Part shown: positions 7,960 through 40,888 of the stretch, piece after piece
How the letters are laid out: the number at the start of each line of letters is the position of its first letter
How positions within the stretch are numbered: position 1 is the first letter of the stretch
Assembly (NCBI GenBank): GCA_965203555.1
Contig: CBDBCY010000004.1
Span: 2,880,001 to 2,944,000 of the forward strand
Source of the DNA: Acidimicrobiia bacterium
GTDB taxonomy: Bacteria; Actinomycetota; Acidimicrobiia; Spongiisociales; ZC4RG35
Reading direction: 5' to 3'
DNA length: 64,000 nt
The notes under the pieces: model-generated
Told to the model about the DNA's origin: nothing
What the model saw: the letters and a program-made list of their open reading frames with translations, nothing else
Database searches by the model: none
Position numbers and translations under genes: made by a program

Positions 7960-8290
7960 ACGGGTCGTGGGGGCTGTTCCATGTGCAGTCGTTGTGGCAA
8001 TTTGCTGAGGGTCAGACCCGCCCCAGGGGCACCTATAAGTATGAGTGGTTGGTGCTTTTGGTAGCCATCGGGAAGGGCGGCCGGCAGAGTGTGCCGGGTT
8101 GTGTGTTTGGTGAGCGTGACAACCGCGGAGCGGTTGCGGGCGCCGATAATCAGATCGCTTTTCCGAATGGCCCGGTTCGAGGCGTTCGGTGATGCCGGGG
8201 GACGTTCGGCGATGGGCCGTGTGTTCCCCAGCGGTTGATATTTTACCGGCTCACAGTGGTTGCGCGGGCTTCCGCCGCCACGAACGGGCT
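7960..8290 (-). pseudogene. Degraded IS30-family transposase fragment
   Basis: Translation RPIAERP...DLIIGARNRSAVVTLTKHTTRHTL.AALPDGY resembles the IS30 DDE core (GHWEGDLIIG...VER.TR); boundaries approximate. Confidence 0.7.
8011..8048 (-). mobile_element. Isolated left-end fragment of the same IS110 found at 32882-36635
   Basis: gtcagacccgcc..ccaggggcacctataagtatgagtgg matches 36594-36636 apart from a short deletion. Confidence 0.85.
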
Positions 8291-25351: not shown

Positions 25352-25753
25352 TCTTTTGGTGTGCTTCTCGGTGGTGGGGTCAGCAGGGCGCCAGGGTACA
25401 GATTGGGGACATCTTCCGAGAAGGGGCCGGCGGCAGCGGTAACAGGCGGTAAGGACACAACCGCGGACCCGCGCCTGCGGGCTGTCTTCGAACTGATCCT
25501 CCCTAAAACCAGTGACCGATCACCGACTTGTATGACCTGGCATACCGTCACCGTCGGGCATGGCATCGTGAACCCGCAGAAACAGACCACCTGCCGCATC
25601 CAGCGGATCTCTAGAAAAACTGCCGGACCCTCCAAAAACACTGTTCGACAGCAACGACAAGCCCCCCGCATCGCCAGCCATGCCGGCACCGGTCCGCAAC
25701 CGGGCCTCCGGTCAGTCACCCGGTCGCGTTCAAAGGCCAGCCGGGAAGTCCCC

Positions 25754-25787
25754 GGACCAAACCCAGCACCGGACCAAACCCAGCACC
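25754..25787 (+). repeat. 17-bp tandem direct repeat (ggaccaaacccagcacc x2)
   Basis: Two perfect adjacent copies ~90 bp upstream of the ATG at 25878. Confidence 0.9.
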
Positions 25788-25877
25788 ACTCGGGCACGAC
25801 GAAAGCACGTCGCTGTACGCGACAACGATGACCAAACAACAAACCCGCGAAAACACCAAAACCGAGAGGATCAAAAC

Positions 25878-28800
25878 ATGACAACCAGCAAACGAGTCCT
25901 TGCATTGACGATTGCGCTGTCCCTCGCTCTCGGGCTGGTGGCAGCAACGATGTCCACAACGACACCGGCAATCGCCGCCGAGGAATGCAAGATCAAAAAA
26001 ATAGGACAATGGACCATCTACACGATCAACAATGGACAGTCCTACTACGCCGTAACCGGCTCGGAAGAAGACGCGGAGCTGAGGGAACGGTGCGGCCTGC
26101 CACCCCTCACTACGACCACCACAACAACTACGGCCACCACTACGACCACGACAACCACGACCACTCTACCTCAGGACGACAATGATGATGCTGTCACGGG
26201 CGTGAATACGAACTCGATCAGGACCACTACTGATGGGACCGGGGGCGGGACAGGTGATGTGAACACCGACAGCGTCACAACTCAAACCCTCGGGACGAGC
26301 TGGGAACCTGCGGTGACTGTCGAGCCAGCGAACCCCTCTACCAAGGGCAGGTGGTCTCAGTTCAAGTTCACAATGACACCAGCACCAAGGAGGGACAGAA
26401 CTTCTGTTCTAGTGGAGGTGTATGTGCCTAGGTTCGGGCGCTACAAAACCTTTGTACCCATGAAAAGCGCCACCAAAGTGACGGGCTTTAGGGCCCAAGA
26501 TGATGATGAGTCGACAATCACGGTCAAGATCCTGGAACGCAACAACCATGACGAGTATGTGGTGGGTAGCCCCTCCTCTGCCTCCGTCACAGTGCCAGCG
26601 GCGTCCGATTATCCCACTGTGAACATTGAAAAGCATGAGACTACCCCTAGTATCGAGGAGGGAGGAGTTGCTAGGTTTCTCATAACGGCCGACAAGTCGA
26701 TACCCGCTTTCTGGGATGTGATGGTTGATGTTTCGCAGACCAACGGCCCGTTTACCACACAGTTGGGAGAACAACCCGTTGAGTTCGGCCCCGGGGACAC
26801 GAGTGTCATCTTCGAAGTGGAAACCGATCCCGACGACGTTTGCGAGGACGACGGGCAGATAATCGCTGAGCTCTCGGATAGCGTCATCTACACGGTCGGG
26901 TCCAATGATTCGGCGATCGTCCCCGTGACAGACGACGATCGTGAAAGGGCGCCAGTCTCTACAACGATCGGTGAGGGTTCTTTGACCCTGAAACCGAGGA
27001 CGTACAGTTTTGCGGGGAGGCAATGGACCAATAAGAGAGATAGGACGCTCCGTGTAGGCGGGTGGAAGCTGACGTGGGATCCCTGCCTGGATGGGGACAA
27101 CGTCCTGGAGGCCAACGTCATCAAGAACTTCACGACGAACCTCATGTCCTATTTCTTAGGGGGGACCTTTGATTGTTATACCACGATTTGCCAAGAGTTA
27201 AACCATGCTATCCGCAACGGAAACCAGTGCTTGAACGACGCCGCGGAGAGAATGGTCCGCTGGGGCCTGGAAAGGATCAGAGACGACGAGGATGTGAACA
27301 GTGGCTTTCCTGACCTGGGGGACTGCCATGTCGTAGAGTGGGATGATGACACTCCCACGTTCACGGTTTCCGCTCATCGATCTACTGTGACGGAGGGGGA
27401 TGAGGTCCGGTTCGATTTCGACTGGACCACTCCCAATGGCCAGAACCCGGAGCGTCGAACCGTCAACCTGAGGATAGTGACGGTCGGCAGCTTCCTGGAG
27501 GAAGAACCGCCGTCTACTCATGTCCTCGGAAAGAACGACGCGTTCAGCCACCGGGACAAGTACCGCACCCTGAAGCTGGAAACCGATAATGACGGCGTGG
27601 TAGAGCGCTTCGGAACCGTGCAACTCATTATTCTTCCTCCTAGCGACGATGACCACGTCTACGCTGTGGGCGAGGACAGTACTGCCATCGTCACCGTTCT
27701 CGACGATGACGAGGCCGTCACTTTCACTTCAACCACGCCTGCCCCTGTGGTCGAGGGAAATCGGCTCACGTTCTCAGTATCGGTCACCAAACACGCCAGA
27801 GATGGTATTCTGTCTGTGTCGGTTACGGAAACCGGGAACATGCTGAAACGCGATCGGGGCCATCCGCCCACCCAGGTCAACATCAGCAACGGCAACGGTA
27901 CCCTGTACGTCGACACGGTCAACGACACGCACCGGGAATGTCCTAGCACGATCAGTGTGACCAGCACCGACCCCCGCATCGGCAGTTCCAACACCGCCAG
28001 CGTGACGGTGGCCGACTACGAGAGGCCTGACAACGACGGGCCCACTGTGTCCATCATGCCCACCCGTCGCGGGTCGGCGATAACCGAAGGCCAAGACGCT
28101 TCGTTCACCATCACATCCACCGACTCGTCCAAGGCCGTGCCCGTGTTCTACCGCGTGACCCTCGGAACCAGTTGGGGTGCTCACTCCGACTGGCGGTGTG
28201 CAAGTGTCCAGGGCACCCAAACCGTATCCATCGCCACTTCGGACGATAGCGTTGACGAACCGGACGGGCCGCTGACCGTTTCACTGAGCAGCTCGCACCC
28301 ACACTACACCGTCTCTAGCAAGTCGCCGTCTGCTTCGGTGACCGTTAACGACGATGATGGGGGCGTCACCGTGGCCGCACCCAGTGCGCAGATCGGCAGC
28401 GCCGGCAATGTCATAGCGGGGGACGAGTTTGGCGTGTGGGTTGGCTTCTGCAACGAAGATGACCCGCCGAGCAGGGTCCGGGTCGAGGTAGAGCGCCCGG
28501 GTTATTCCGACAAGCACAGGTGGGTTTCTATAGACCATACCTACGATTGTTGGAACTACGGATTCTTCCATGAGAGCACCTCTTCAACCGGAACGGCCCG
28601 AATCACCGTGGTGGAAGGCGATGGCTATACCCATGGTGCCAGCACCTCTATCACCATTACGGCTGCCGGCACCTCCAGGACTACGGCTAGGCAAACCGTC
28701 TCCTACTCCACGGGCGGAGGCTCTCCCGTGACCTTCACGTCTCCGACCACCACCGTCAACGACGAAGTTCCGTCTGCTCCGCGTTCTTTGTCGGGGTCTT

Positions 28801-31800
28801 CGAATACGGCGGGTACGGCGGTGTCTTTGTCGTGGTCTGTTCCGAGCAACTACGGTACAGCGGCGATTTCCGGCTATCAGTATCGGTACAAGCTCAGCAG
28901 CGGCAGTTCGTGGACATCTTGGTCATCTCAGAGCAGTACTTCGGTGACGATTAGTGGTCTGTCGCCAGGTACTTCTTACGATTTTGAGGTGAGAGCCAGT
29001 AACAGCGCGGGAGACGGAGAGGCCGCGTCGACCACGGTCGCCACTGCTGTTGCGGCTTTGCCGGTGTTGTCGGTTTCTCGGTATCAGTCGGGTGTGACCG
29101 AGGGCGGCACTGCTTATTTCCGGGTGACCTCGGACAAGGTGGTTCCCTCTAGCATTTCGGTGGGTTTTTCCCGGTCACAGCAGGGGTCGTTCGCTAGTTG
29201 GAGCGGCAGCGGAACGGTCACTATTAGCAGTGGTAACACCCGGTCGGGGTGGATCAGCGTGTCCACTGTTGATGACAGCACGGACGAACCGAACGGTTCG
29301 CTTACCTTGACCTTGAACAGTGGTACCGGTTATACGGTGGGGTCGCCGTCGTCTGTTTCGGTGACTGTCAACGACGACGATGTTGCGGTGTTGCCGGTGT
29401 TGTCGGTTTCTCGGTATCAGTCGGGTGTGACCGAGGGCGGCACTGCTTATTTCCGGGTGACGTCGGATAGGTCTGTGCCTTCTAGCATTTCGGTGGGTTT
29501 TTCCCGGTCGCAGAGTGGGTCGTTCGCGAGTTGGAGCGGTAGCGGAACGGTCACTATTAGTAGCGGTAACACTCGATCGGGTTGGATAGCGGTGACCACC
29601 CAAAACGACAGCGTGGACGAACCGAACGGTTCGCTTACCTTGACCTTGAACAGTGGTACCGGTTACACGGTGGGGTCGCCGTCGTCTGTTTCGGTGACTG
29701 TCAACGACGACGATGTTGCGGTGTTGCCGGTGTTGTCGGTTTCTCGGTATCAGTCGAGTGTGACCGAGGGCAGCACCGCCTATTTCCGGGTGACCTCGGA
29801 CAAGGTGGTTCCCTCCAGCATTTCGGTGGGTTTTTCCCGGTCACAGCAGGGGTCGTTCGCTAGTTGGAGCGGCAGCGGAACGGTCACTATTAGCAGTGGT
29901 AACACCCGGTCGGGGTGGATCAGCGTGTCCACTGTCAACGACAGCACGGACGAACCGAACGGTTCGCTTACCTTGACCTTGAACAGTGGTACCGGTTACA
30001 CGGTGGGGTCGCCGTCGTCTGTTTCGGTGACTGTCAACGACGACGATGTTGCGGTGTTGCCGGTGTTGTCGGTTTCTCGGTATCAGTCGAGTGTGACCGA
30101 GGGCAGCACCGCCTATTTCCGGGTGACCTCGGACAAGGTGGTTCCCTCCAGCATTTCGGTGGGTTTTTCCCGGTCACAGCAGGGGTCGTTCGCTAGTTGG
30201 AGCGGCAGCGGAACGGTCACTATTAGCAGTGGTAACACCCGGTCGGGGTGGATCAGCGTGTCCACTGTCAACGACAGCACGGACGAACCGAACGGTTCGC
30301 TTACCTTGACCTTGAACAGTGGTACCGGTTATACGGTGGGGTCGCCGTCGTCTGTTTCGGTGACTGTCAACGACGACGATGTTGCGGTGTTGCCGGTGTT
30401 GTCGGTTTCTCGGTATCAGTCGGGTGTGACCGAGGGCGGCACTGCTTATTTCCGGGTGACGTCGGATAGGTCTGTGCCTTCTAGCATTTCGGTGGGTTTT
30501 TCCCGGTCGCAGAGTGGGTCGTTCGCGAGTTGGAGCGGTAGCGGAACGGTCACTATTAGTAGCGGTAACACTCGATCGGGTTGGATAGCGGTGACCACCC
30601 AAAACGACAGCGTGGACGAGCCGGATGGTTCGCTTACCTTGACCTTGAACAGTGGTACCGGTTATACGGTGGGGTCGCCGTCGTCTGCCTCCATCACCGT
30701 CAGGGACAATGATGAGGCGCCCGTGACCTGCTCGTCTGGTCAGGCCAAAAAGAATGGCGTCTGTGGTTACCCGGTGCTGACCCTCGGTAGGGAGACATCT
30801 GGTGTCACTGAGGGCGAGCGAGTTCGGTTCAAGATTTACTCGGATCGCCCGGTCACCAGGTCAACCAATGTGAAGGTCTTTCGCCAGGAGAGGGGCAATT
30901 TCGGCATCTCGACGGGCACTTCCTCTGTCGGGATTTCAGCGGGTGATGGACCGTGGTCCTTCTCCTACAGCACCACCGACGACTCCACCGATGAGTCGGA
31001 TGGATCGGTGCAGGCGTCCCTGCGTTATGGTTCCTACTACACGCCTGGCTCCCCATCGTCGGCTAGCGTGGCGATACGGGACAACGATGATCCACCTGCT
31101 GTGATCTCGACGGTCAGCATCAGTGGTGGTAGGGCCGTTACTGAGGGAGAGAATGTGGTATTCACCCTCACCGCTACCCCGAGACCAACGGAGGCGATAT
31201 CGGTCAGGGTGCATATCGCGGACCCCTACAGCGATGATCCGGGGATAACCATTTTCCTCACCGACTACAGCGAAAGGACCGTGCGCATTGGCACCAGCGG
31301 TAGGGCCACACTTTCCCTCGCCACCGATGACGATCAAGAGGACGAGAGGGACGATGATGTCGTAGCCACCATCAAGCCGTCGGCGTCAGAGTATCGCATT
31401 GGCACCGCCTCAGCCTCAGTTCGGGTGAGGGACAACGATGTGGCGGATACCTGCGCCTACGGTCAGACGAAGAAAAACGGTTCCTGCGGTTACCCGATAT
31501 TGACTGTCGAGAGGGTCTCATCGAGTGTTACCGAAGGCCAGGCTGCCCAATTCAGGATCCGCTCTGATCGGCGTGTGCCAAATTCCATCTCCGTCAATTA
31601 CCAACGCTCGGTGAGTGGTAGCTTCGGCATCTCCGCACGCAACTCCGCTGCTGGGAGTTTCCGGGGCAATGGCCCATGGGTGTTCAGCCTGAGTACTAGT
31701 AATGACAGTGTTGACGAACCTGATGGCTCGGTGACGGTGAGCTTGCGGAGTGGCCCCAGATATAGGGTTGGCAACCAATCATCGGCGACGGTGACCATTC

Positions 31801-32606
31801 GGGACAACGATGCGCCCGTCTCCACCGCCTGTCCCACTGGTCAGACGAGGAAAAACAGTGTCTGCGGCTATCCGGTGCTGACGATTGTTAAGGTGTCGTC
31901 GAGTATCACCGAGGGTCAGACCGCCAACTTCAACATCCGATCGGATCGCCGTGTTCCGGCCTCCCTCAGGGTGCAGCTCTACCGCTCGACGAGCGCTGGT
32001 TTCGGCACCTCTGGTTCGTTCTCGCTGGGGATCTCCTCGGGTACCGGGCCATGGGCCTTCGGTTACCTGACCGTAGGTGATTCGGTGGACGAGGCAAATG
32101 GCTCGGTCAACATGACCTTGAGGTCGGGAACCCGGTACTCGGTGGGTTCACCCTGGTCGGCGAGAGTGGTCATATACGACGACGATTCGGCCGCGACCGG
32201 TGACGACGATGACGACGATGACGACGGTAACGATGAGGACGACGGTGGTAGTCGCTCCGGTGGCGGTAATGATGACGACGATGACGAGGATGCTGCCGAC
32301 CTCCTGCCTAGCGCCAGGGCCGGCAACCGGAATAGCGGCAGTATCACCGCAGGGTCGCAGTTGTCCTTCTGGGTCGGCTTCTACAAGTGGGAGAACCCTC
32401 CGACCAGCATCAGGGTCAAGGTAGAGCGCCCAGGCTATACCACCAAGTACAGGTGGATCTCCCTGAACAGGACCTCGGGGCACTGGAGGTACGGCAACTT
32501 CACGGAGAACACCCTTTCATCGAGGACGGGGACGGCTCGCATCACTGTTGTATCAACCAGTAGCTATCACGGCGGGGCCACCAGTACCGTCCGCATAACC
32601 AACTAA
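25878..32606 (+). CDS. Giant (~2240 aa) secreted surface protein with many Calx-beta-like/Ig-like repeats and one fibronectin type III domain
   Basis: Signal peptide (..PAIA), poly-Thr linker, repeated VTEG....F.V...T.DD..DE.DG...V.L....Y.VG..SSA.VTV.DDD units, FN3 (PSAPRSL...LSW...ISGYQYRY...GLSPGTSYDFEVRASN), poly-Asp linker; RBS gagagga. Confidence 0.9.
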   Translation: MTTSKRVLALTIALSLALGLVAATMSTTTPAIAAEECKIKKIGQWTIYTINNGQSYYAVTGSEEDAELRERCGLPPLTTTTTTTTATTTTTTTTTTLPQDDNDDAVTGVNTNSIRTTTDGTGGGTGDVNTDSVTTQTLGTSWEPAVTVEPANPSTKGRWSQFKFTMTPAPRRDRTSVLVEVYVPRFGRYKTFVPMKSATKVTGFRAQDDDESTITVKILERNNHDEYVVGSPSSASVTVPAASDYPTVNIEKHETTPSIEEGGVARFLITADKSIPAFWDVMVDVSQTNGPFTTQLGEQPVEFGPGDTSVIFEVETDPDDVCEDDGQIIAELSDSVIYTVGSNDSAIVPVTDDDRERAPVSTTIGEGSLTLKPRTYSFAGRQWTNKRDRTLRVGGWKLTWDPCLDGDNVLEANVIKNFTTNLMSYFLGGTFDCYTTICQELNHAIRNGNQCLNDAAERMVRWGLERIRDDEDVNSGFPDLGDCHVVEWDDDTPTFTVSAHRSTVTEGDEVRFDFDWTTPNGQNPERRTVNLRIVTVGSFLEEEPPSTHVLGKNDAFSHRDKYRTLKLETDNDGVVERFGTVQLIILPPSDDDHVYAVGEDSTAIVTVLDDDEAVTFTSTTPAPVVEGNRLTFSVSVTKHARDGILSVSVTETGNMLKRDRGHPPTQVNISNGNGTLYVDTVNDTHRECPSTISVTSTDPRIGSSNTASVTVADYERPDNDGPTVSIMPTRRGSAITEGQDASFTITSTDSSKAVPVFYRVTLGTSWGAHSDWRCASVQGTQTVSIATSDDSVDEPDGPLTVSLSSSHPHYTVSSKSPSASVTVNDDDGGVTVAAPSAQIGSAGNVIAGDEFGVWVGFCNEDDPPSRVRVEVERPGYSDKHRWVSIDHTYDCWNYGFFHESTSSTGTARITVVEGDGYTHGASTSITITAAGTSRTTARQTVSYSTGGGSPVTFTSPTTTVNDEVPSAPRSLSGSSNTAGTAVSLSWSVPSNYGTAAISGYQYRYKLSSGSSWTSWSSQSSTSVTISGLSPGTSYDFEVRASNSAGDGEAASTTVATAVAALPVLSVSRYQSGVTEGGTAYFRVTSDKVVPSSISVGFSRSQQGSFASWSGSGTVTISSGNTRSGWISVSTVDDSTDEPNGSLTLTLNSGTGYTVGSPSSVSVTVNDDDVAVLPVLSVSRYQSGVTEGGTAYFRVTSDRSVPSSISVGFSRSQSGSFASWSGSGTVTISSGNTRSGWIAVTTQNDSVDEPNGSLTLTLNSGTGYTVGSPSSVSVTVNDDDVAVLPVLSVSRYQSSVTEGSTAYFRVTSDKVVPSSISVGFSRSQQGSFASWSGSGTVTISSGNTRSGWISVSTVNDSTDEPNGSLTLTLNSGTGYTVGSPSSVSVTVNDDDVAVLPVLSVSRYQSSVTEGSTAYFRVTSDKVVPSSISVGFSRSQQGSFASWSGSGTVTISSGNTRSGWISVSTVNDSTDEPNGSLTLTLNSGTGYTVGSPSSVSVTVNDDDVAVLPVLSVSRYQSGVTEGGTAYFRVTSDRSVPSSISVGFSRSQSGSFASWSGSGTVTISSGNTRSGWIAVTTQNDSVDEPDGSLTLTLNSGTGYTVGSPSSASITVRDNDEAPVTCSSGQAKKNGVCGYPVLTLGRETSGVTEGERVRFKIYSDRPVTRSTNVKVFRQERGNFGISTGTSSVGISAGDGPWSFSYSTTDDSTDESDGSVQASLRYGSYYTPGSPSSASVAIRDNDDPPAVISTVSISGGRAVTEGENVVFTLTATPRPTEAISVRVHIADPYSDDPGITIFLTDYSERTVRIGTSGRATLSLATDDDQEDERDDDVVATIKPSASEYRIGTASASVRVRDNDVADTCAYGQTKKNGSCGYPILTVERVSSSVTEGQAAQFRIRSDRRVPNSISVNYQRSVSGSFGISARNSAAGSFRGNGPWVFSLSTSNDSVDEPDGSVTVSLRSGPRYRVGNQSSATVTIRDNDAPVSTACPTGQTRKNSVCGYPVLTIVKVSSSITEGQTANFNIRSDRRVPASLRVQLYRSTSAGFGTSGSFSLGISSGTGPWAFGYLTVGDSVDEANGSVNMTLRSGTRYSVGSPWSARVVIYDDDSAATGDDDDDDDDGNDEDDGGSRSGGGNDDDDDEDAADLLPSARAGNRNSGSITAGSQLSFWVGFYKWENPPTSIRVKVERPGYTTKYRWISLNRTSGHWRYGNFTENTLSSRTGTARITVVSTSSYHGGATSTVRITN
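29049..30713 (+). repeat. Five near-identical 333-bp (111-aa) tandem repeats inside the surface protein gene
   Basis: Units start at 29049, 29382, 29715, 30048, 30381; variant pattern A-B-A-A-B. Confidence 0.95.
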
Positions 32607-32988
32607 GTCTGTGAAACCCTGACTCCCCTGCAGTCCTCTTTCTTGCGGGGGAGTCCCCTTCCCTCCCAAAAGTCCGAAGAAAAACCTGGGAAATCCGCCC
32701 TTCGCTGGGCTGACCCTGGGCATATTTGATGACGACCATCGAAATTCCACTCAATACGGCCCTGCGCGTTTTTTTGGGATTGGTGGTCTGGCTGGTGGGT
32801 GGTGGGGTTCATGTTAGGAGGAGTGCTCGGGCGGCGTAGTTGTGGGGGTTGGTGAAGCCGTGGGCGGTGCGTCGGAGGGTTTGATGCTCCTATGTTTGTC
32901 AAATTGGGGTTTGGGGGGTGGTGTGATGACGATCATCGAAAGTCCCCAGAGTCGATCATCGAAATTCCCCACCCTGGGTTGGGTGGTT

Positions 32989-33771
32989 TTAGGCTAGCAG
33001 GTCTCCTTTCGGTCGGTGTTTTCGGGCTTGGGCTTGGTAGCTTCTGAGGCGGTAGCTGTCGCCGGTGATGGTGAACACCACGCTTTTGTGGAGCAGTCGG
33101 TCGAGCATGGCGGCGGCGATGGTGTGGTCGGAGAAGATCTCTCCCCACGAGGCGACACCGAGGTTGGTGGTGAGAATGATCGACCCTTTTCCGTACCGTC
33201 TGGAGATGACCTGGAACAGGGTGGCGGCGTCTTCTGCCGGCATGGGCAGATAGCCCAGTTCGTCGATGATCAACACTTTGGGGGTGTTGAAGAACCGCAA
33301 CGTTTGGGCCCATCTTCCTTGTAGGGCGGCTTTGCGGCACCGCGCCGCCAGGTCGGCTGCGGTGGTGTAGTACACCTTGTGTCCGGTGTCTACCGCGGCG
33401 CGGCCCAGGATGACCGCCAGCATGGTTTTGCCCACGCCGGGTGGTCCGATGAACAAAACGTTGGTGGCGTCGGTCAGGTAGGCGCCGGTGGCGAGTTCTC
33501 GTACCATTTTCTCGTCGATGCTGGGTTGGGCGGTGAAGTCGAAGTCTTCCAGTTTCCAGCGGGTGGGGAAGTTGGCCAGTTTGAGACGGGTTTCCCATCG
33601 CCGCTGTTCGGTGGTCTCTACTTCTACTCGAAGTAGACCTTCAAGGAACTCGGTGTGGCTTTCACGGTTGGTTCGTGCCTGTTCGAGGTGGGTGGGGAGC
33701 GCCTCGGCCGCGGCGGGTAGGTTGAGGTAGGCCAGATGGCCTCGTAGTTGTTGGTACACCGATTGGTTCAT
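32989..33771 (-). CDS. istB: IS21 helper ATPase IstB
   Basis: GPPGVGKT Walker A, LIIDELGY Walker B, TTN, AMLDRLLH, GDSYR. Confidence 0.96.
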   Translation of the reverse strand: MNQSVYQQLRGHLAYLNLPAAAEALPTHLEQARTNRESHTEFLEGLLRVEVETTEQRRWETRLKLANFPTRWKLEDFDFTAQPSIDEKMVRELATGAYLTDATNVLFIGPPGVGKTMLAVILGRAAVDTGHKVYYTTAADLAARCRKAALQGRWAQTLRFFNTPKVLIIDELGYLPMPAEDAATLFQVISRRYGKGSIILTTNLGVASWGEIFSDHTIAAAMLDRLLHKSVVFTITGDSYRLRSYQAQARKHRPKGDLLA

Positions 33772-35069
33772 CACAGACCCGCTTTTCGGTTTTGTTGGTC
33801 GATGTGCCGCTGGTACACCTCCAGATCGATCACCGTTTCTGTGTACAGGTCTCCGATACCGGCGGCGATAGCCAAAGCCGCGTCCGATGGCGGACGGTTG
33901 GGTTTGGGTTTGCACGGTGGTTTGGTGGTGAACTCGGCCAGGACCACGTTCTCCAAAGCAGCGGTGTGCTCGGGTAGCCGAACCACCCGTCCCATACCGC
34001 GGGGTGCCTGCTGGTGGGTAGCGACCAGCCGGCCACTGGCCGAGAACATGCTGATGGTGGGGTCACCGAGCCTCCAACGGACGGTGACCTGGGTTCCTAT
34101 CACCCCTGGTGGCACCGAGTATCGGTTACCGCGTACCGATACCAGCCCGTTGGATGTCACCCTGCGCTCCAGGATCCCTTCTGCCGGGTAAGGCACCGCA
34201 GGAAGCTCGAGGAGAGGCTCGTTATCGGCCAGCTCGCCCACCGTGCTCTCCCGCCGTGGGCGAAGATCGCCCACGGTCTGGCAGAAGCTGTCCAGGCTGT
34301 GCTGTGCTTCGGCGATGCTGGTCACCGCTGCGGTGCGCCACCACCGCTGAGAGACATAGTGGATGGCCTTTTCCACCACGCCTTTCCGTTGGGGACGGCG
34401 CGGTGGGCACGGATCGACAGCCACCCCGTAGTGTTTGGCTACCCCAACGAACGACGGCTGGATACGACCACTGGCCGCCACCACGGTAGCCATCCGATCC
34501 ACCCTCCACCGCCGCGGGGTACCCTCCAGTCGTCTCAACACCTGGTCGAGACCCTCCACCAAATGGGGTTGGTCCTGGCGGGACGTGATCCACGCCCGAA
34601 ACCGGCCCGAGTGCGACAGCACTCCCACCAGCACATGAGCGGTGGCTCCCCACGGGGCGTCACGTAGTTCCACCCAGTCCCACTGGCACTCCTCACCCGG
34701 TGGATGATCAATAATCGCCGTGGCCCGGCCCCTGGTACCCGCACAGGCGCCACACAACGGCCGCAGGCCCCGAAGACGGACCTTCCGCACAAACGTCACA
34801 TAGCTCTGCTCATAGCCCAAAGCCACCACCTCGTCGAACAGCGCCGACCCCCACACATGCGGATCATCAGACAACCGCTGCCGCACATACGCCTCGAACT
34901 CATCAAACAGATCCGTCTCTGCCCGGGCACGCTCGCCCGGGGCTCGCCCGTCCGACAGATACGCCCGTATCGTTTTCCGGTCTCTTCCCAAATGACGAGC
35001 AATAGCCGAGATCGACCACCCCCGCCTCCTCAAAGCATGAACTTCCACGCACTCCTCCAGTACCAACAT
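33771..35069 (-). CDS. istA: IS21 transposase IstA
   Basis: N-terminal HTH (GWSISAIARHLGRDRKTIR), PGEECQWDW, VDRM, KGVVEK, RYSVP. Confidence 0.95.
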   Translation of the reverse strand: MLVLEECVEVHALRRRGWSISAIARHLGRDRKTIRAYLSDGRAPGERARAETDLFDEFEAYVRQRLSDDPHVWGSALFDEVVALGYEQSYVTFVRKVRLRGLRPLCGACAGTRGRATAIIDHPPGEECQWDWVELRDAPWGATAHVLVGVLSHSGRFRAWITSRQDQPHLVEGLDQVLRRLEGTPRRWRVDRMATVVAASGRIQPSFVGVAKHYGVAVDPCPPRRPQRKGVVEKAIHYVSQRWWRTAAVTSIAEAQHSLDSFCQTVGDLRPRRESTVGELADNEPLLELPAVPYPAEGILERRVTSNGLVSVRGNRYSVPPGVIGTQVTVRWRLGDPTISMFSASGRLVATHQQAPRGMGRVVRLPEHTAALENVVLAEFTTKPPCKPKPNRPPSDAALAIAAGIGDLYTETVIDLEVYQRHIDQQNRKAGL

Positions 35070-35210
35070 AAGGGGATAGGGCTCCTCTCCACAGCTAGTG
35101 ACATGACAATCGCCTAGCTTGGAGAGAGCCCTACCCAACAACGGGTATTTGCTCCCAGAGGGTGGGGAATTTCAGTGATCGAGACTGGGGAATTTCAGTG
35201 ATCGCCAACA

Positions 35211-36404
35211 GGTGAGCCAGTGTTGGTATTGGGTGGCGAGTTGGTGGTTGTGGTAGAGGCCTCGTTCGAGTTGTGAGAGGCGGTTTGGGTGGGTTTGGAG
35301 GGCTATGGCGGCGCGAGCCAGAGTTGTTTGGGTTTTTTGGCGTAGGCAGCGTAGATCGCTGCCGTTGGGTGTTTGGTTCGGGTTGGTCAGCAGTCGGTAG
35401 ACCTGGCGGGCGATGTAGCGTTTCAGGCAGCGGATGATCTCTTTGCGGGTTTTGCCTTCGGCTTGTCGCCGTTGGGCGTATTCGATGGTGCGGGGGTCGG
35501 TGCGTAGCCGTACTGTGGCTATACGCCAGAGGGCGTTGTTGGCTTGGCGGTCGCCGCCGCGGTTGAGTCGGTGACGCACTATGCGTCCCGACGACGCTTG
35601 GACGGGGCTTGCGCCGCAGAGAGCGGCGAAAGACGCTTCTGTGCGCATGCGGTGGGGGTTGTCCCCGGCGGTGACCAGCAGCGCGGCGGCGGTTTCGGGG
35701 CCGATCCCACCGGCAGCCAGCAGCGCCGGGTTGGCCCGGGCGCAGAGCTGTTTGATTTCGGTGTCGAGTTGTTGGATCTCCCAGGTAAGTGCTTGGTATC
35801 GGCGGGCCAACAGACGCAACGCTTTCTTGGCATAGGCGATATTGGTCCGGTTCGCGCCGGGACGATAGGCGGCGCAGACCTTCACCCGGGCTTTCGGGGA
35901 AAGGCTCCCGAGTTGGTGTTTGACCTGGTCGGGAGCGGTGACCACCAGAGCGTGCAGCTGGTTGATGGTCTGGGTGCGGGCCTTGGCGGCCGAACGGCGG
36001 ACCACCCGAAGCATCCTGATCGCTTCGACTGGTCCGTCGCCGCTTTTGGGTGTCCCGGTGGCCTGTCCGCTCAAAACAGCCCGGGCCGCGGCCTGAGCGT
36101 CGGTGGCGTCGGTCTTGCCGAACCGGCGGCGCAGTTGACGGTTGGGACGGTTCACTTCCACTACCTCGACACCGATTCTCACCAGGTAGCGGGTCAGGCC
36201 GGCGCCGTAGCTGCCGGTGCCCTCTATTCCGACCTGGGCAACGTTGCCGTGTGACCCCAGCCAGTTGCCCAGTTGTTCATAACCGGCTGTGTCGGTTCCG
36301 AACGATGCCGTGCCCAACACCCGACCGGTGGTATCCACCACCGCCGCCACATGAACATCGCGGTGGGTGTCCACCCCACCGAACACATCAACCCGATCTG
36401 ACAT
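35211..36404 (-). CDS. IS110 DEDD recombinase with C-terminal XRE-like HTH; last codons (TPQTPI-stop, 32899-32919) split off by IS21
   Basis: GVDTH, GIEGTGSYG, GKTD..DA, QASSG, HRLNRGGDRQAN, RCLKRY; tail DLR.LRQ....TL...A..L......LSQLERG. Confidence 0.93.
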
Positions 36405-36409
36405 TCGTC

Positions 36410-36620
36410 TCTTCTCCTCATTTAGAATCGGTTCTGTTCTCCCTGACCCGAAAAGGCGGTGGACGGACCACTCAAGTGGCAAGAGCAAGGCTCCTATCAG
36501 GTCACAGCCGCCCTGTCGGGAGAGCGCCGCCCCCAGGCCGGAAGCAGGCCGACAAATCAAACCAAAGGCACAAACAGGCCAGGTTAGGTTGGAGTCAGAC
36601 CCGCCCCGGCCCAGGGGCAC
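36410..36620 (-). ncRNA. Predicted IS110 bridge RNA (target- and donor-binding loops)
   Basis: Non-coding left end with two stem-closed loops holding CAACCTAA+GGTTTG (target) and ATAGGAGC+TGAGTG (donor) guide-like segments; transcript limits approximate. Confidence 0.8.
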
Positions 36621-36635
36621 CTATAAGTATGAGTG

Positions 36636-37755
36636 GATGAGGTTGTTGATGCCTTCCAGGGATCCGTTCGAACGGCGGGCGTGGTGCCAGTTGAGGATTT
36701 CTTTTGACCAGTTGAGGACGGTGGTGACGGTGTGGTAGTACTCGGGTATGTGTCCGGTTTCGTACAGGGTGACGAACCGTTCGAGGGCATCGAGCGCGGT
36801 GGGGAGGTCTTTGGCCTCATAGAGGCCGTAGAGTTGTTGGAGAGCGCACCGAGGCGACCCGCAGACGCGGGTACGCCTCGAATAGGTGTCGGAGACGTTT
36901 TTTCTCTTCGGGGGTGATATTGGCCTTTCTTTTGAGGAGCAGGTACCGGGCGCGGAACAGATCCGGATGCCAGGCGGGTTTGACGCCGGGCGACTGGCGG
37001 CGTTGCAGATCCCGGCGTACCAGGGTCAGTCCTTCGGTGAACCAGCGGGCGGCGTGGAACCGGTCCAGGACATGACAGGCCGAAGGAAGGTAGCGGACGA
37101 TGGCCGCCTGGTAGGAACGGGAACCGTCGGAGACCACGACCTGTACGTTCTGGCGCCAGCGGGGTCCCTGCTCGATGAAGAACCTGCTCAACGCCTGTTT
37201 GGACCGCCCAGGGAACATGGACAGGATCTCGCCGGTGTCGCCGTTGACAACAACGGTTACATAGCGGTGGCGTTTTCGGATCGATGTTTCGTCGATCAGC
37301 AGCACCCGGCACCTTTGGCGACGGCGCCGGGTTCGGATCAAATGGGACCAGTCGGTGACCAGACCCATGATCAGATGCCAACTGATCTGGTGGCGGCGGG
37401 CCACTGCCCGGATGGGCATGGCCTGGGCGTCCTGGACCAGCCGGCGGGCCAGCCGGCGCGTTATACCACCCACAAACTGGGGATGGGTTTCCATGTGCCG
37501 CCTCTCGCACCGGTCGCACACGTACCGTCGCTGCGTCCACAACAACACCGTCAAACGTCCGCTCACTTCCAGGTCGCGGATTCGCCGCTGGCGGCGGTCG
37601 TGCACCCGCCGGCACGACCGGCCACAATGCGGACACTCCGACAGCTTCTTCACCGAGACCACCTCCACCACCAGCTCCCCGACGGTGTCAACCACCACCT
37701 TCGTCACCCGCACACCACGCAGGTGCAACCGGACCGGCATAACATCAGCATTCAT
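36636..37755 (-). pseudogene. ISL3 transposase, frameshifted near 36850 and interrupted by IS110; C-terminus at 32809-32881
   Basis: CPHCG..C zinc finger, IRDL, LIDETS, VVSD, LDRFH, then ALQQLY...SNGSLEGINNLI in another frame. Confidence 0.92.
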
Positions 37756-37940
37756 TGAGGCCTCCTGGATAGGCGATTCGCTTACACCACCTATTCCAGC
37801 GAGGCCTCAACCCCTAACCAAGGACCCCCTCCCTAACCCTGCTCCCCACAAATACGCGCAGCCTCCTCAATACTGAAGGGTGCGCGGGTAGGGAGATCGT
37901 GATTGTCGCCCTCCAGCATCTTTACCCAGGCAGGAGAAGA

Positions 37941-39053
37941 TCAGAAACGAGCCGGTTCGGGGCCTGTGTAGCGGGCGCTGGGGCGCAGGAGTTTGCCCTT
38001 CTGGGCTTGTTCGAGCACATGAGCGGACCAGCCGATTGAGCGGCTTACCGCGAAGGTGGGGGTGAACATCTCTCGGGGGAGTCCGGCCATTTCCAGCACC
38101 ACTGAGGCCCAGTATTCGACATTGGTGAGAATCCGCTGGTTGGGTTTCCACTCGGCCAGCACTCCGAGGATCGCTTCCTCTATACCCGCCGCTCGTTCCA
38201 CCAGGTCTCCTCCCAGGCTTTCGGCCGCCGATCGCAACACCACGCCCCGGGGATCTGAGACCCGGTAGACCGCGTGACCAAACCCCATGATCTTTTGCTT
38301 TTCGGCCAAGCGCGCCCGTACCCACTCTGCGGCGCGGTCCGGCGTGCCTATCACATCGATCATGTCCATCACCCGGCTGGGTGCGCCGCCGTGAAGGGGT
38401 CCGCTCAGGGCGCCCAGACCGGCCACCAAGGCGCCGGCCATGTCCGCTCCGGTGCTGGCCACCACCCGGCTGGCAAAGGTGGAGACATTGAACCCGTGGT
38501 CCAAAGTGGTGATCAGGTACTGCTCCACAGCCCGCGCCGATTTATGGCTTGGCGGTCTGCCTGTGTTCATCCTCAGGTAGTCGGCGGCGTGGGACAGGTT
38601 CGGGTCGGGGTCCAATGGCTTCAGACCCGCTCTGCGCCGCTGGTGGCGGGCCAGGATGGTGGGAACCGCGGCCGCCAGTCGGATCGCGTCGTCACGGCGT
38701 TGCTCCGCTGAGCGGTCGAGCAGCGGACCCCGACCCTCCACCGCCGCCACCGCCAGCAGTCCCACCCGAAGAACCGCCATCGAGTCGTTCATGCGGGCGC
38801 TGGCCGAGTCCACCACCCGGGCCGCCTCCTCGGGAATGGCCCGCACCGGTCCCGGATCGATGGCGGGCGCCTCGGGCGGCAGGGCGCCGTTGATCTGAAG
38901 CGCCCACACGTCCTCCAGCGTCCGCGTGCGAGCCAGGTCCACCGCGCTGTACTGGCGGTAGTGAAAGAACCCCTCCTCACCCCGGACTGCTCCCAGTTCG
39001 GTGTCGGACACCACAAGTCCCTTCAAACCCGGGGGCGCGATTTCCATGTTCAT
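37941..39053 (-). CDS. Citrate synthase / 2-methylcitrate synthase (short type)
   Basis: PPGLKG, DHGFN.STF, LSGPLHGGA, IMGFGHAVY...DPR, NVE, R.IGW.AH. Confidence 0.93.
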   Translation of the reverse strand: MNMEIAPPGLKGLVVSDTELGAVRGEEGFFHYRQYSAVDLARTRTLEDVWALQINGALPPEAPAIDPGPVRAIPEEAARVVDSASARMNDSMAVLRVGLLAVAAVEGRGPLLDRSAEQRRDDAIRLAAAVPTILARHQRRRAGLKPLDPDPNLSHAADYLRMNTGRPPSHKSARAVEQYLITTLDHGFNVSTFASRVVASTGADMAGALVAGLGALSGPLHGGAPSRVMDMIDVIGTPDRAAEWVRARLAEKQKIMGFGHAVYRVSDPRGVVLRSAAESLGGDLVERAAGIEEAILGVLAEWKPNQRILTNVEYWASVVLEMAGLPREMFTPTFAVSRSIGWSAHVLEQAQKGKLLRPSARYTGPEPARF

Positions 39054-39162
39054 CTCCTAATCGAACGGTACGCCGGCCACGTCTCCGGGCATTGCGACGG
39101 AGAGAACCCGGTTGCTCATCGGGCGGTCAACATCACCCTGGGAGCCCCCTTTCAAATGACAG

Positions 39163-39663
39163 GTGTTCATTGTAATCCCTGCGGCACCCGGCAGACTCGC
39201 CGTCTTCAAGTCACGGTGCCCGGGCTATGATCCCCCACTACGCAATCTGCGGAGGTCGATCATCACCGGCACTTCACCGCCACCCGATCCCGGTTCCGAC
39301 TGGACCTCGGCACCGCCTTCAGATGGCTCCTATAGCTTCGAACCGGACATTTCGGTCGCAGCCACCCGGATAGCCCTCACCGGCTTCGGGTCATCGGTAG
39401 GCTTCCTGGCGCTGCTGGCCTTGATTGTGATGCTGGAGGCGGGAGGCCCGGGGGCACCCGGAGTCCTGTACGCGATCTCCCTGGTCGCCCTTCTCCTGGG
39501 ACTGGTCTTGTCCATCGTCGGATTGAGCAAGCGCCACCGGATCAGCAGGGAGCATCACAAGCTGGCCATCGCCGGGCTGGTGATCTCCATGGTGTCGATC
39601 GTGGCTGTGCCCTTTCTCCTGATCGTGGCCTTCGCCATGTTTATGGGAGATTTCTTCACCTGA
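39163..39663 (+). CDS. Small membrane protein, DUF4190-like; start uncertain
   Basis: Three hydrophobic segments with LGLVLSIVGL...LAIAGLVIS pattern. Confidence 0.6.
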   Translation: MFIVIPAAPGRLAVFKSRCPGYDPPLRNLRRSIITGTSPPPDPGSDWTSAPPSDGSYSFEPDISVAATRIALTGFGSSVGFLALLALIVMLEAGGPGAPGVLYAISLVALLLGLVLSIVGLSKRHRISREHHKLAIAGLVISMVSIVAVPFLLIVAFAMFMGDFFT

Positions 39664-39838
39664 GGGTGCGGTCCGAATCCGGTCGGCGCTGCCGGCATCG
39701 CTCCAAGCCACCCTGCACATGTTTTTTGTTCCCTTTTCACCGTGCCGTCCCAAGATGGGAACTGACGCACCGCCCTCTTTCATCTACCGGCAAGTCGGGC
39801 GCGGGAACCGCAGTCCCCTGATCCGGCGGTAGTTCGCT

Positions 39839-40888
39839 CTACCAGCCGCCCAACCGGTCTACTTCGGCCCATACCGCCGCCTCCGGTTCCTCGACCGGGG
39901 GGAACTCGACAAGTCCCGACACTGACTTCGGGGAGATTGCCAATACTCGGGCGGCCTGGGTTTGGGTGAGGACTCCTTTGGTCAGAGCGGCGCATACCAA
40001 CTGCAACATGGGGCGGGGAGCGGTGGCCAGTGGCGGAGGGTTGGCGCCACGGCCTCGGTCCATCGGATTCGGAGAGTAACCCAATCCCGGCGCCAGTCCG
40101 GTGGGGGAGACCTGTCCCATCCGATGGTATTGCTCCCCCGAGATCAAGCCCGACTGGCGAAGCCGCGTCGCGATCAGCGCATAGCTCACTCCGAACATAC
40201 GTTGCAGGTGTAAAGCCGCCACGGGATGGGAAGGTTCCACGCCTCCCCCCAGGGCGGCCACCGCCCTGATCAAGGCGCTATCGGGTACCAGCAGTTGGGC
40301 GGCGAAGCCGTCGGCAAGGCGCTGATGGGGTCCCTCGGGTTGCGAGAACCAGGCATCTCGCAGGTGGGAATGGCAGAAGGCGTGGCCCAGTTGAGCAGCC
40401 AGTGCGAATAGGTGGCGCCCCAGGTCCAGTCGGGAGTTCACCACTGCGCAGAACCCGATGGACGGGTGGTTGAAGAAGAATCCGGAGTGCGGTTCTCCCA
40501 GAGGAAGACGAAAGACCATGGCGTGGGGAGCGGCCAGCGCCAGCAGGTGATCGAAGATCGGCCCCTCGCCCCAGCCGAGAGCCACTCTCGCCGCCTGGGC
40601 AAGCCGGGACGCGTCGCCGAGATCGGCCCGGTGGGGAAGGGAAGAAGGAGGCAGAGGGCTGATTCCGCGACCGGGCAGTTCCCCGCCCATGAGGGTCACC
40701 AATTCGAGGTAGGACTGTGCCAGTTCGGCGAAGCGGTTTACGGAGATCCGGAAGTCGTTGTCCGGTGCGAAATCGGCCCAACCGAGGACCTCGGCAGCCA
40801 GGACAGGCGCCGCTGCTCGGTCCGCCGGCCACCGGTTCATCGAGTCGGTCTGCTCCGAGGGAGATTCCCGATCGACCCTGTCACCCAT
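39839..40888 (-). CDS. ImmA/IrrE (DUF955)-like protein with degenerate zinc-binding motif
   Basis: SGFF......VVN.....GRHLFALAAQLGH, ADGFAAQLLVP, FGVSY.....RL; start may be 40840. Confidence 0.75.
   Translation of the reverse strand: MGDRVDRESPSEQTDSMNRWPADRAAAPVLAAEVLGWADFAPDNDFRISVNRFAELAQSYLELVTLMGGELPGRGISPLPPSSLPHRADLGDASRLAQAARVALGWGEGPIFDHLLALAAPHAMVFRLPLGEPHSGFFFNHPSIGFCAVVNSRLDLGRHLFALAAQLGHAFCHSHLRDAWFSQPEGPHQRLADGFAAQLLVPDSALIRAVAALGGGVEPSHPVAALHLQRMFGVSYALIATRLRQSGLISGEQYHRMGQVSPTGLAPGLGYSPNPMDRGRGANPPPLATAPRPMLQLVCAALTKGVLTQTQAARVLAISPKSVSGLVEFPPVEEPEAAVWAEVDRLGGW

Follow-up and report, generated by a model that had tools for sequence, protein, structure and literature searches.

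Guide covariation and polar junctions in natural insertions of an IS110-group element with a predicted bridge RNA

The window analysed here, a 64,000-nucleotide stretch of DNA from an uncultured Acidimicrobiia bacterium, carries on its minus strand an IS110-group element that, judging from sequence comparison with its relatives, very probably works by bridge-RNA-guided recombination as IS621 does. In the predicted RNA, a 10-nt 5′ segment of loop 1 equals the left flank of the target, and a 6-nt 3′ segment of the same loop complements the two crossover bases together with four right-flank bases. The equivalent segments of loop 2 match the element's own right end, ATAGGAGCAT, and its left end, CA-CTCA. 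The copy in the window occupies an imperfect target, to which its left guide fits at 8/10 positions and its right guide at 6/6. An earlier note on this DNA had described an IS110 element with a bispecific bridge RNA whose loop 1 reads the target and loop 2 the donor. Our analysis bears this out, with the same strand sense as in IS621. The features referred to throughout are as follows, with the evidence for each in brackets.

32882-36635, minus strand: whole IS110-group element, nested IS21 included (junction reads, sister copies, empty sites)
36636-36645, minus strand: left target CAACCTCATC, within an ISL3 transposase gene (junction read, empty sites)
36405-36633, minus strand: non-coding left end, 229 nt, predicted bridge RNA template (fold, compensatory changes, sister copies)
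36529-36620, minus strand: predicted target-binding stem-loop, closed by a long stem, with an internal loop and a small hairpin at its far end (fold, covariation)
36582-36591, minus strand: putative left target guide CAACCUAACC, same sense as the target top strand (8/10 to CAACCTCATC, family covariation)
36558-36563, minus strand: putative right target guide GGUUUG, complementary to CA-AACC (6/6 here, family covariation)
36556-36557, minus strand: putative target-loop handshake AU, complementary to donor positions 6-7, AT (covariation)
36447-36520, minus strand: predicted donor-binding stem-loop (fold, constrained folds)
36488-36497, minus strand: putative left donor guide AUAGGAGCCU, same sense as the element right end ATAGGAGCAT (9/10 match)
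36469-36474, minus strand: putative right donor guide UGAGUG, complementary to CA-CTCA at the left end (6/6 here, covariation)
36467-36468, minus strand: putative donor-loop handshake GU, reading target positions 6-7 (covariation)
35211-36404, minus strand: recombinase gene, native codons 1-398 of 404 (Pfam, structure match)
32924-35210, minus strand: nested IS21, istA and istB (Pfam rve, Mu-transpos_C_2, IstB_IS21)
32884-32919, minus strand: last six recombinase codons, stop codon and short IS110 right end (sequence read, sister copies)
32878-32881, minus strand: right target AACC, where the ISL3 transposase frame resumes (junction read, empty sites)

The element, its ends and its relatives

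The left junction reads ...CAACCTCATC-CA-CTCATACTT and the right junction, read past the nested IS21, ...ATAGGAGCAT-CA-AACCCTCC; the element thus spans from CA-CTCATAC at its left junction to GGAGCAT-CA at its right, and beyond the IS21 the IS110 terminus is ...TTTGACAAACATAGGAGCAT-CA at 32882. The same genome holds two intact 1.46-kb copies free of IS21, both at the same ISL3 site (100% and 99.93% identity over 1450 nt), as well as two uninterrupted copies of ISL3 (C4:2168640-2168688 and C4:2645573-2645621). The latter read ...CAACCTCATCCAAACCCTCC and give the target CATC-CA-AACC. Because two intact sister copies and two empty sites are found in one genome, the ends of the element are defined. 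The empty sites also confirm the target, the donor joint and the 2-nt CA overlap as the earlier note had deduced them. In the junction reads, CA is the sole repeat at both junctions, with no multi-base target duplication. The left end is long (229 nt); the right end is short, with only ∼15 nt after the stop codon. Joined in silico, the right end ATAGGAGCAT and the left end CA-CTCA form the excised-circle joint.

By Pfam and reading frame, the element lies in the 3′ part of the ISL3 transposase gene. The IS21 inside it is bounded by a 4-bp duplication, CACC, at 35211-35214 and 32920-32923, and is absent from both sister copies. It inserted after the IS110 had landed, into the last recombinase codons. 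The window copy has thereby lost the last six native codons of its recombinase, and its own activity is uncertain. As a genome feature the arrangement is otherwise ordinary: three insertion sequences are stacked at 32809-37755 (minus strand), IS21 in IS110 in ISL3. The ISL3 gene lies in two frames (36817-37755 and 36584-37636) and appears frameshifted near 36820-36880. On the plus strand, a 2308-aa open frame at 25680-32603 ends near the ISL3 remnant; with its Calx-beta and fibronectin type III domains, its product is probably a large surface protein.

The recombinase starts at 36404, directly downstream of the non-coding left end. Its open frame in the window continues to 35172 through 12 foreign IS21 codons; the intact 404-aa protein was read in a sister copy (L003). 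Pfam places DEDD_Tnp_IS110 (PF01548, 9.7e-26) at residues 10-154 and Transposase_20 (PF02371, 1.5e-18) at residues 229-310. The only solved relatives found were the transposases of IS621 (8wt6_A, E = 3.8e-11) and ISCro4 (9t56, E = 6.7e-10). The IS621 alignment consists of two short aligned stretches and spans the GxDT, IExTG and KTDxxDA motifs and the Tnp domain. By sequence, then, the recombinase is of the DEDD/Tnp type and distantly related to that of IS621, from which the catalytic roles of the motif residues are carried over by analogy.

A −35-like hexamer, TTGACA, lies in the right end at 32897-32902, overlapping the stop codon. In the circle it would stand 17 nt from CATACT (36626-36631) in the left end. 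This exact TTGACA/CATACT arrangement recurs in 12 of 26 unique junctions built in silico, and −35-like and −10-like hexamers 16-18 nt apart are seen in all 26. A joint promoter across the circle has been described for IS110 elements (Durrant 2024). With such a promoter, the RNA would be made mainly from the excised circle, starting near the first stem.

The left end has 10 matches in its own genome, including diverged full copies at 87% and 72% identity. It occurs in 17/201 genomes of the family (its own included); within the genus, 12 of 16 further genomes carry it. From a protein-based scan of named genomes we kept 79 loci. Acidimicrobiia MAGs account for most of them, and a few come from Rhodococcus, Cryobacterium and Burkholderiales; 51 loci showed both the element-end motif and the donor-guide word. 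Overall, the evidence base comprises about 50 close and 30 distant copies. Left out of the counts are copies that lack the loop anchors (e.g. L037), those with a left flank of <14 nt (L033, L045) and, because its right end was mis-detected, the right flank of L044. In the distant set, L101, L084 and the second matches in L040, L044, L060 and L066 are mis-anchored rows.

Several of these relatives deserve mention in their own right. The genome itself holds at least three lineages of this IS110 clade (100%, 87% and 72% to the query) and many fragments, and each full copy has its own target guides. Copies lie at C4:471244-472727 and C4:2306491-2307943, and fragments near C4:405000, 600100, 648300, 78800, 1635000, 1791500 and 2870000. 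One IS110 left-end remnant (L009) is in the window, at 8011-8051 (minus strand), where a CTCATACTTATAGG start and part of stem 1 are followed by unrelated sequence; its left flank, ...AGCACCAAC-CA, resembles a GACACCAACC-type guide. The end of istB in the window (33006-33020, minus strand) reads AACACCGAC-CG-AAAG, the empty form of a site that is filled in L013/L038 and L015, which come from other genomes in the same genus. As relatives occupy this istB site, members of the clade target different insertion sequences: ISL3 and IS21, and an IS3-type transposase gene in Burkholderiales. L020 is flanked by CTGAAATC-CA ... CGATGAGCC, which agrees with the guides of another lineage (L033, L051 group). 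In a single Ca. Spongiisociaceae genome, more than 10 copies of one lineage (L051-L060, L067, L083, L085, L096) sit in the repeat ACTCCCCACTGAAATC-CG-ATGAGCC. Targeting of REP elements is known for other IS110 members, and these insertions recall it.

The predicted bridge RNA and its guides

The predicted fold of the 236-nt left end has −104.3 kcal/mol (z = −3.27), and 0/200 shuffles fold as well. The fold consists of two stem-closed loops, target loop first and donor loop second, which together contain the four words that the earlier note had picked out by eye, in the arrangement it had described. On the minus strand these are CAACCTAA (36584-36591), GGTTTG (36558-36563), ATAGGAGC (36490-36497) and TGAGTG (36469-36474). 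All four were found where they had been placed, each once within 36400-36640. The two left words, correct in position, turn out to be only parts of longer, 10-nt guides, CAACCUAACC (36582-36591) and AUAGGAGCCU (36488-36497).

In three copies in the same genome the left end is 100% identical. Among relatives, stem 1 shows compensatory changes, 8 of the 32 predicted pairs being altered on both sides, and the closing stem of the donor loop forms in 24 lineages despite differing outer-stem sequences. RNAalifold, run on a plain MAFFT alignment, recovered stem 1 and misaligned the donor-loop stem; per-sequence constrained folds were used instead.

We defined the right target guide as the six bases before AU(C/U)UGUCG. 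Compared, as its reverse complement, with the first six right-flank bases, it matched at 6/6 in 13 of 21 unique pairs. The remaining eight pairs matched at 5/6 (four), 4/6 (two), 3/6 (one, L020/L041) and 2/6 (one, L028/L061). The mean for non-cognate pairs was 2.44/6, and 0/100,000 shuffles reached the observed sum. A wider set of 31 pairs gave 15 at 6/6, 7 at 5/6, three at 4/6, five at 3/6 and one at 2/6. A right target guide longer than 4 + 2 was considered and dropped, the next base being unpaired in the seven copies read.

The left target guide was defined as the ten bases after GUCUGAC(C/U)C. Across 30 unique pairs, 24 agreed with the left flank at 8/10 or better (15 at 9/10 and 9 at 8/10), and the other six at 7/10 (three), 6/10, 4/10 and 3/10. 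Here, 0/20,000 shuffles reached the observed sum. Taken family-wide, the permutation results (0/100,000 right, 0/20,000 left) exclude chance for the target guides. Poor fits to the flanks were seen for L028/L061 (right 2/6, left 4/10), L020/L041 (3/6 and 3/10) and L027 (right 4/6). The misfit of L020/L041 and L028/L061 suggests that these copies may have been inserted in trans by another element's RNA, or that their guides may have changed later.

Among pairs at 8/10 or better, two registers of the left target guide are seen. Its end falls just short of position 8 in 10 pairs (register 0), and its last C lies on position 8 in 14 (register +1). That the two registers are an artefact of wrong boundaries was considered and rejected, since empty sites were found for both: for register 0, ISL3 and, in L096, the REP-like repeat ...CACTGAAATC-CG-ATGAGCC; for register +1, the IS21 istB end, AACACCGAC-CG-AAAG. 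Alternatively, a single bulged DNA base would turn every register-0 case into register +1. The left guide may tolerate both spacings from the exchange point, 9 bases and 10.

For the donor loop, the left guide is nearly invariant in the clade. Its form AUAGGAGC(C/U)U agrees with the right end ATAGGAGCAT at 9/10, with a conserved mismatch at position 6, and it matches position 7 (U = T) in every copy. Covariation was seen only in L101, where the guide is AUAGGAGU and the end ATAGGAGT. The right donor guide is more variable, and in distant relatives it is found together with the corresponding element start: UGUGUG with CACACA, UGCGUG with CACGCA, UUAGUG with CACTAA, and AAAGUG with CACTTT. Further such pairs are UCACAG with CTGTGA, UAAGCG with CGCTTA, and GGAGUG with CACTCC. 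Exact complements of the right donor guide stand 32-38 nt upstream of the loop-1 anchor in 55/57 matches. Of 13 right donor guide words extracted (two of them probably extraction errors), 7 have an exact cognate match there, compared to 6 of 912 non-cognate pairs. Checked across relatives, as the earlier note had proposed, both target guides and the right donor guide covary with the DNA they would read.

Crossover, handshake bases and the exchange point

The earlier note had proposed a CA core. The 2-nt CA overlap stands for the window copy, and donors in the clade carry C-A, but the targets are C-A, C-C, C-G or C-T. In the close set, all left junctions are C-A before CTCATAC except in L049 (T-A), while right flanks start with C-A, C-C, C-G or C-T, the second base being the one predicted by the right target guide. 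Donors vary as well, with position 9 being G in L090 and T in L094 and L116. After both left guides, the RNA has UG in place of the CA of the DNA, and neither guide has complementarity to position 9; the left donor guide also has none to position 8.

With a stricter pipeline, 29 events were read, and donor and target differed at position 9 in 16 of them (these 16 being the events with differing position 9 and at least three of four right-flank bases matching). All 16 are polar: the base at position 9 is the donor's at the left junction and the target's at the right. L116, with donor C-T, is included. The same polar pattern is seen in L090 (donor C-G, left junction C-G, right flank C-A), which is outside the 29. 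Position 8 is C at 29/29 right junctions and T at three left junctions (L072, L103, L115). L103 and L115 lie in an IS3-type transposase gene (...NCWD|N), and their T falls at the third position of a GAT codon. At sister sites of these two the codon is GAC, and the left guide ends correspondingly in U or C. Position 8 is thus usually C in both partners, and where the target has T, the left guide ends in a U that reads it. Together, the polar junctions and the cases with T at position 8 point to an inherited exchange point between positions 8 and 9.

On this basis, strands would be exchanged at the 8/9 boundary. Polar scars are what one would expect if a single nick were made in the top strand after position 8 and the transferred strand were then copied. 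We also considered an IS621-like staggered exchange with random segregation of the mismatched core; it was rejected, as 16/16 events are polar. For IS621, the top strand is reported to be cut after the CT core (Hiraizumi 2024), and mainly top-strand transfer is reported by two preprints (one being 10.1101/2025.10.25.684509). We therefore put forward, tentatively and at somewhat less than even odds, that in this Acidimicrobiia-centred clade the core may have shrunk from a CT dinucleotide to a single 8/9 exchange point, with position 9 programmed separately and with polar products. The junctions themselves show position 9 to be variable, the donor's base following the right donor guide and the target's the right target guide. 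A search of the IS110 and bridge RNA literature for a non-CT or single-nucleotide core returned only IS621 papers; supplementary tables, which lay outside this search, may list the clade.

In IS621, once the top strands have been exchanged, the two bases 3′ of each right guide are reported to pair with the other DNA at its positions 6-7; until then, these handshake bases must not pair with their own DNA (Hiraizumi 2024; 2026 Nature paper). The corresponding bases of the target loop are AU in 30/30 close unique combinations, and the donor has AT in 22/24. The wider set holds AU/AT in 27 combinations and AA/TT in three. With two extractions combined, L088 has target-loop AA with donor TT, and L100, L103, L109 and L115 have AC with donor GT; L049 and L090 are exceptions. 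In the donor loop, the first base pairs with target position 7 by Watson-Crick rules in 27/30 (G-C 20, U-A 7), with one G·T and two mismatches, and the second base pairs with target position 6 in 19/30. A donor-loop GU corresponds to a target (A/T)C. By these sequence comparisons, the two bases that had earlier been read as skipped are the handshake positions 6-7 known from IS621.

This bears on an alternative, favoured in the earlier note, under which the element is a distinct bridge recombinase with a CA dinucleotide core, both of its left guides ending two bases early by design, and hence with a new geometry. Seen in the window alone, this has some appeal. The contiguous matches here are CAACCT plus A (7/8) and ATAGGAGC (8/8), each followed by two bases and then CA, and neither left guide complements the crossover bases (RNA UG, DNA CA), in contrast to IS621, in which all four guides are core-paired. 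In relatives, however, the left guides do not end 2 nt before the core. Their 10-nt left target guides match up to the crossover (9/10 in 15/30), and the apparent gap in the window arises because of two mismatches at an imperfect ISL3 target (8/10). In L004, for example, a guide one base off that of the window adjoins CAACCTAACC and matches it at 9/10; the same or similar guides likewise match through the two bases in the L051 group, L015, L016 and L064, all at 9/10. The left donor guide agrees at position 7 in every copy, and the seemingly skipped bases coincide with handshake positions already described for IS621 (Hiraizumi 2024). A fixed CA core also sits poorly with target position 9, which takes all four bases and follows the right target guide, and with donors that have G (L090) or T (L094, L116) at this position. 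We consider this alternative unlikely. Less probable still is that the left end serves only as a leader or promoter, with matches due to protein-recognised ends or chance and no guide RNA. An Rfam scan of window positions 30000-40000 (E up to 1) did give 0 matches, though a bridge RNA model is possibly absent from Rfam, and the sequencing records listed for this sequence were three of DNA type, from one study, and none of RNA. But protein-recognised ends would not make internal loop segments covary with unrelated host flanks at dozens of sites, the shuffle tests (0/100,000 and 0/20,000) speak against chance, and the guide mechanism is experimentally established for IS621 (Durrant 2024; Hiraizumi 2024).

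Bridge-RNA-guided recombination of the IS621 kind remains the preferred reading. Weighing against it are the poor flank fits of some copies, the two registers of the left target guide, the near-invariance of the left donor guide, and left guides that, unlike those of IS621, do not complement position 9. Natural copies of the clade are many. Bridge recombinases are under development as programmable tools for genome rearrangement, and mechanistic knowledge of them comes almost entirely from IS621 and close kin, with a CT core. The clade offers a clean data set in which all guide classes and the handshake bases can be read from insertion scars. Its polar scars bear on one- versus two-strand exchange in vivo. 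If the single exchange point is real, they would constitute an independent natural record favouring the one-strand transfer model debated for IS110, and donor and target would need essentially no shared sequence, which would relax a constraint on targeting.

Comparison with known bridge RNA systems

The best-characterised point of reference is IS621 of Escherichia coli (Durrant 2024; Hiraizumi 2024). As described there, IS621 shares with the present element the DEDD RuvC-like and Tnp domains, as well as a long left end encoding a two-loop RNA, target loop first and donor loop second, with the same strand sense. The handshake bases AU and GU, and AT at donor positions 6-7, are identical letters in the two. 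The conserved hexamer spacing across the circle joint can be compared with the rebuilt joint promoter of IS621. On the other hand, the proteins are only distantly similar (E = 3.8e-11), and the left target guide has 10 nt here, where that of IS621 has 7 plus 2 core bases; the right guides of the present element are 4 nt plus 2. There is no invariant CT; donors here have C-A, and targets have C-N or, rarely, T-N. Finally, the left guides here lack pairing at position 9, and the left target guide occurs at two spacings from the crossover.

Of the traits of the IS110 group, the following are found: the domains, a long left and short right end apparently free of long terminal or subterminal inverted repeats, two loops, guide covariation in the IS621 strand sense, and the handshake bases. 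The trait of the IS621 subgroup, an invariant CT core that is shared and paired by all four guides, is not; UG follows both left guides. Going by these sequence traits, the element very probably functions like IS621 yet lies outside the IS621-like subgroup. The earlier description of a distinct programmable recombinase therefore overstated the case for what is a distant member of a known family. The real differences are that the left guides lack pairing at position 9 and that no more than one base is common to donor and target.

ISCro4/IS622 (Perry et al., 10.1101/2025.05.14.653916; PDB 9t56), the second-best solved relative (E = 6.7e-10), is of the same family, with the same RNA architecture and handshake guides. 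It is closely related to IS621, having a CT core and a recognition site of 14 nt, and the element described here differs from it as it does from IS621.

CazIS110-1 of Caloranaerobacter azorensis (Sun et al., 10.1101/2025.10.25.684509), compared here by its description, is likewise an IS110 element with a bridge RNA. Excision and insertion by the top strand only are reported for it, a mode that would explain the polar junctions in our clade, if the top strand were nicked after position 8. The word 'core' is absent from the text of that preprint, which does not address core identity.

The IS1111 group (Durrant 2024) shares the recombinase family and the RNA-guided principle. It differs in that its guide RNA is described as lying in a long right end, the left end being short, and in having long subterminal inverted repeats. 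The present element has 229 nt at its left end and only ∼15 nt after the stop codon at its right. More generally, bridge RNAs have been predicted in most catalogued IS110s, with guide lengths that vary (Durrant 2024), which places the present element within a known kind.
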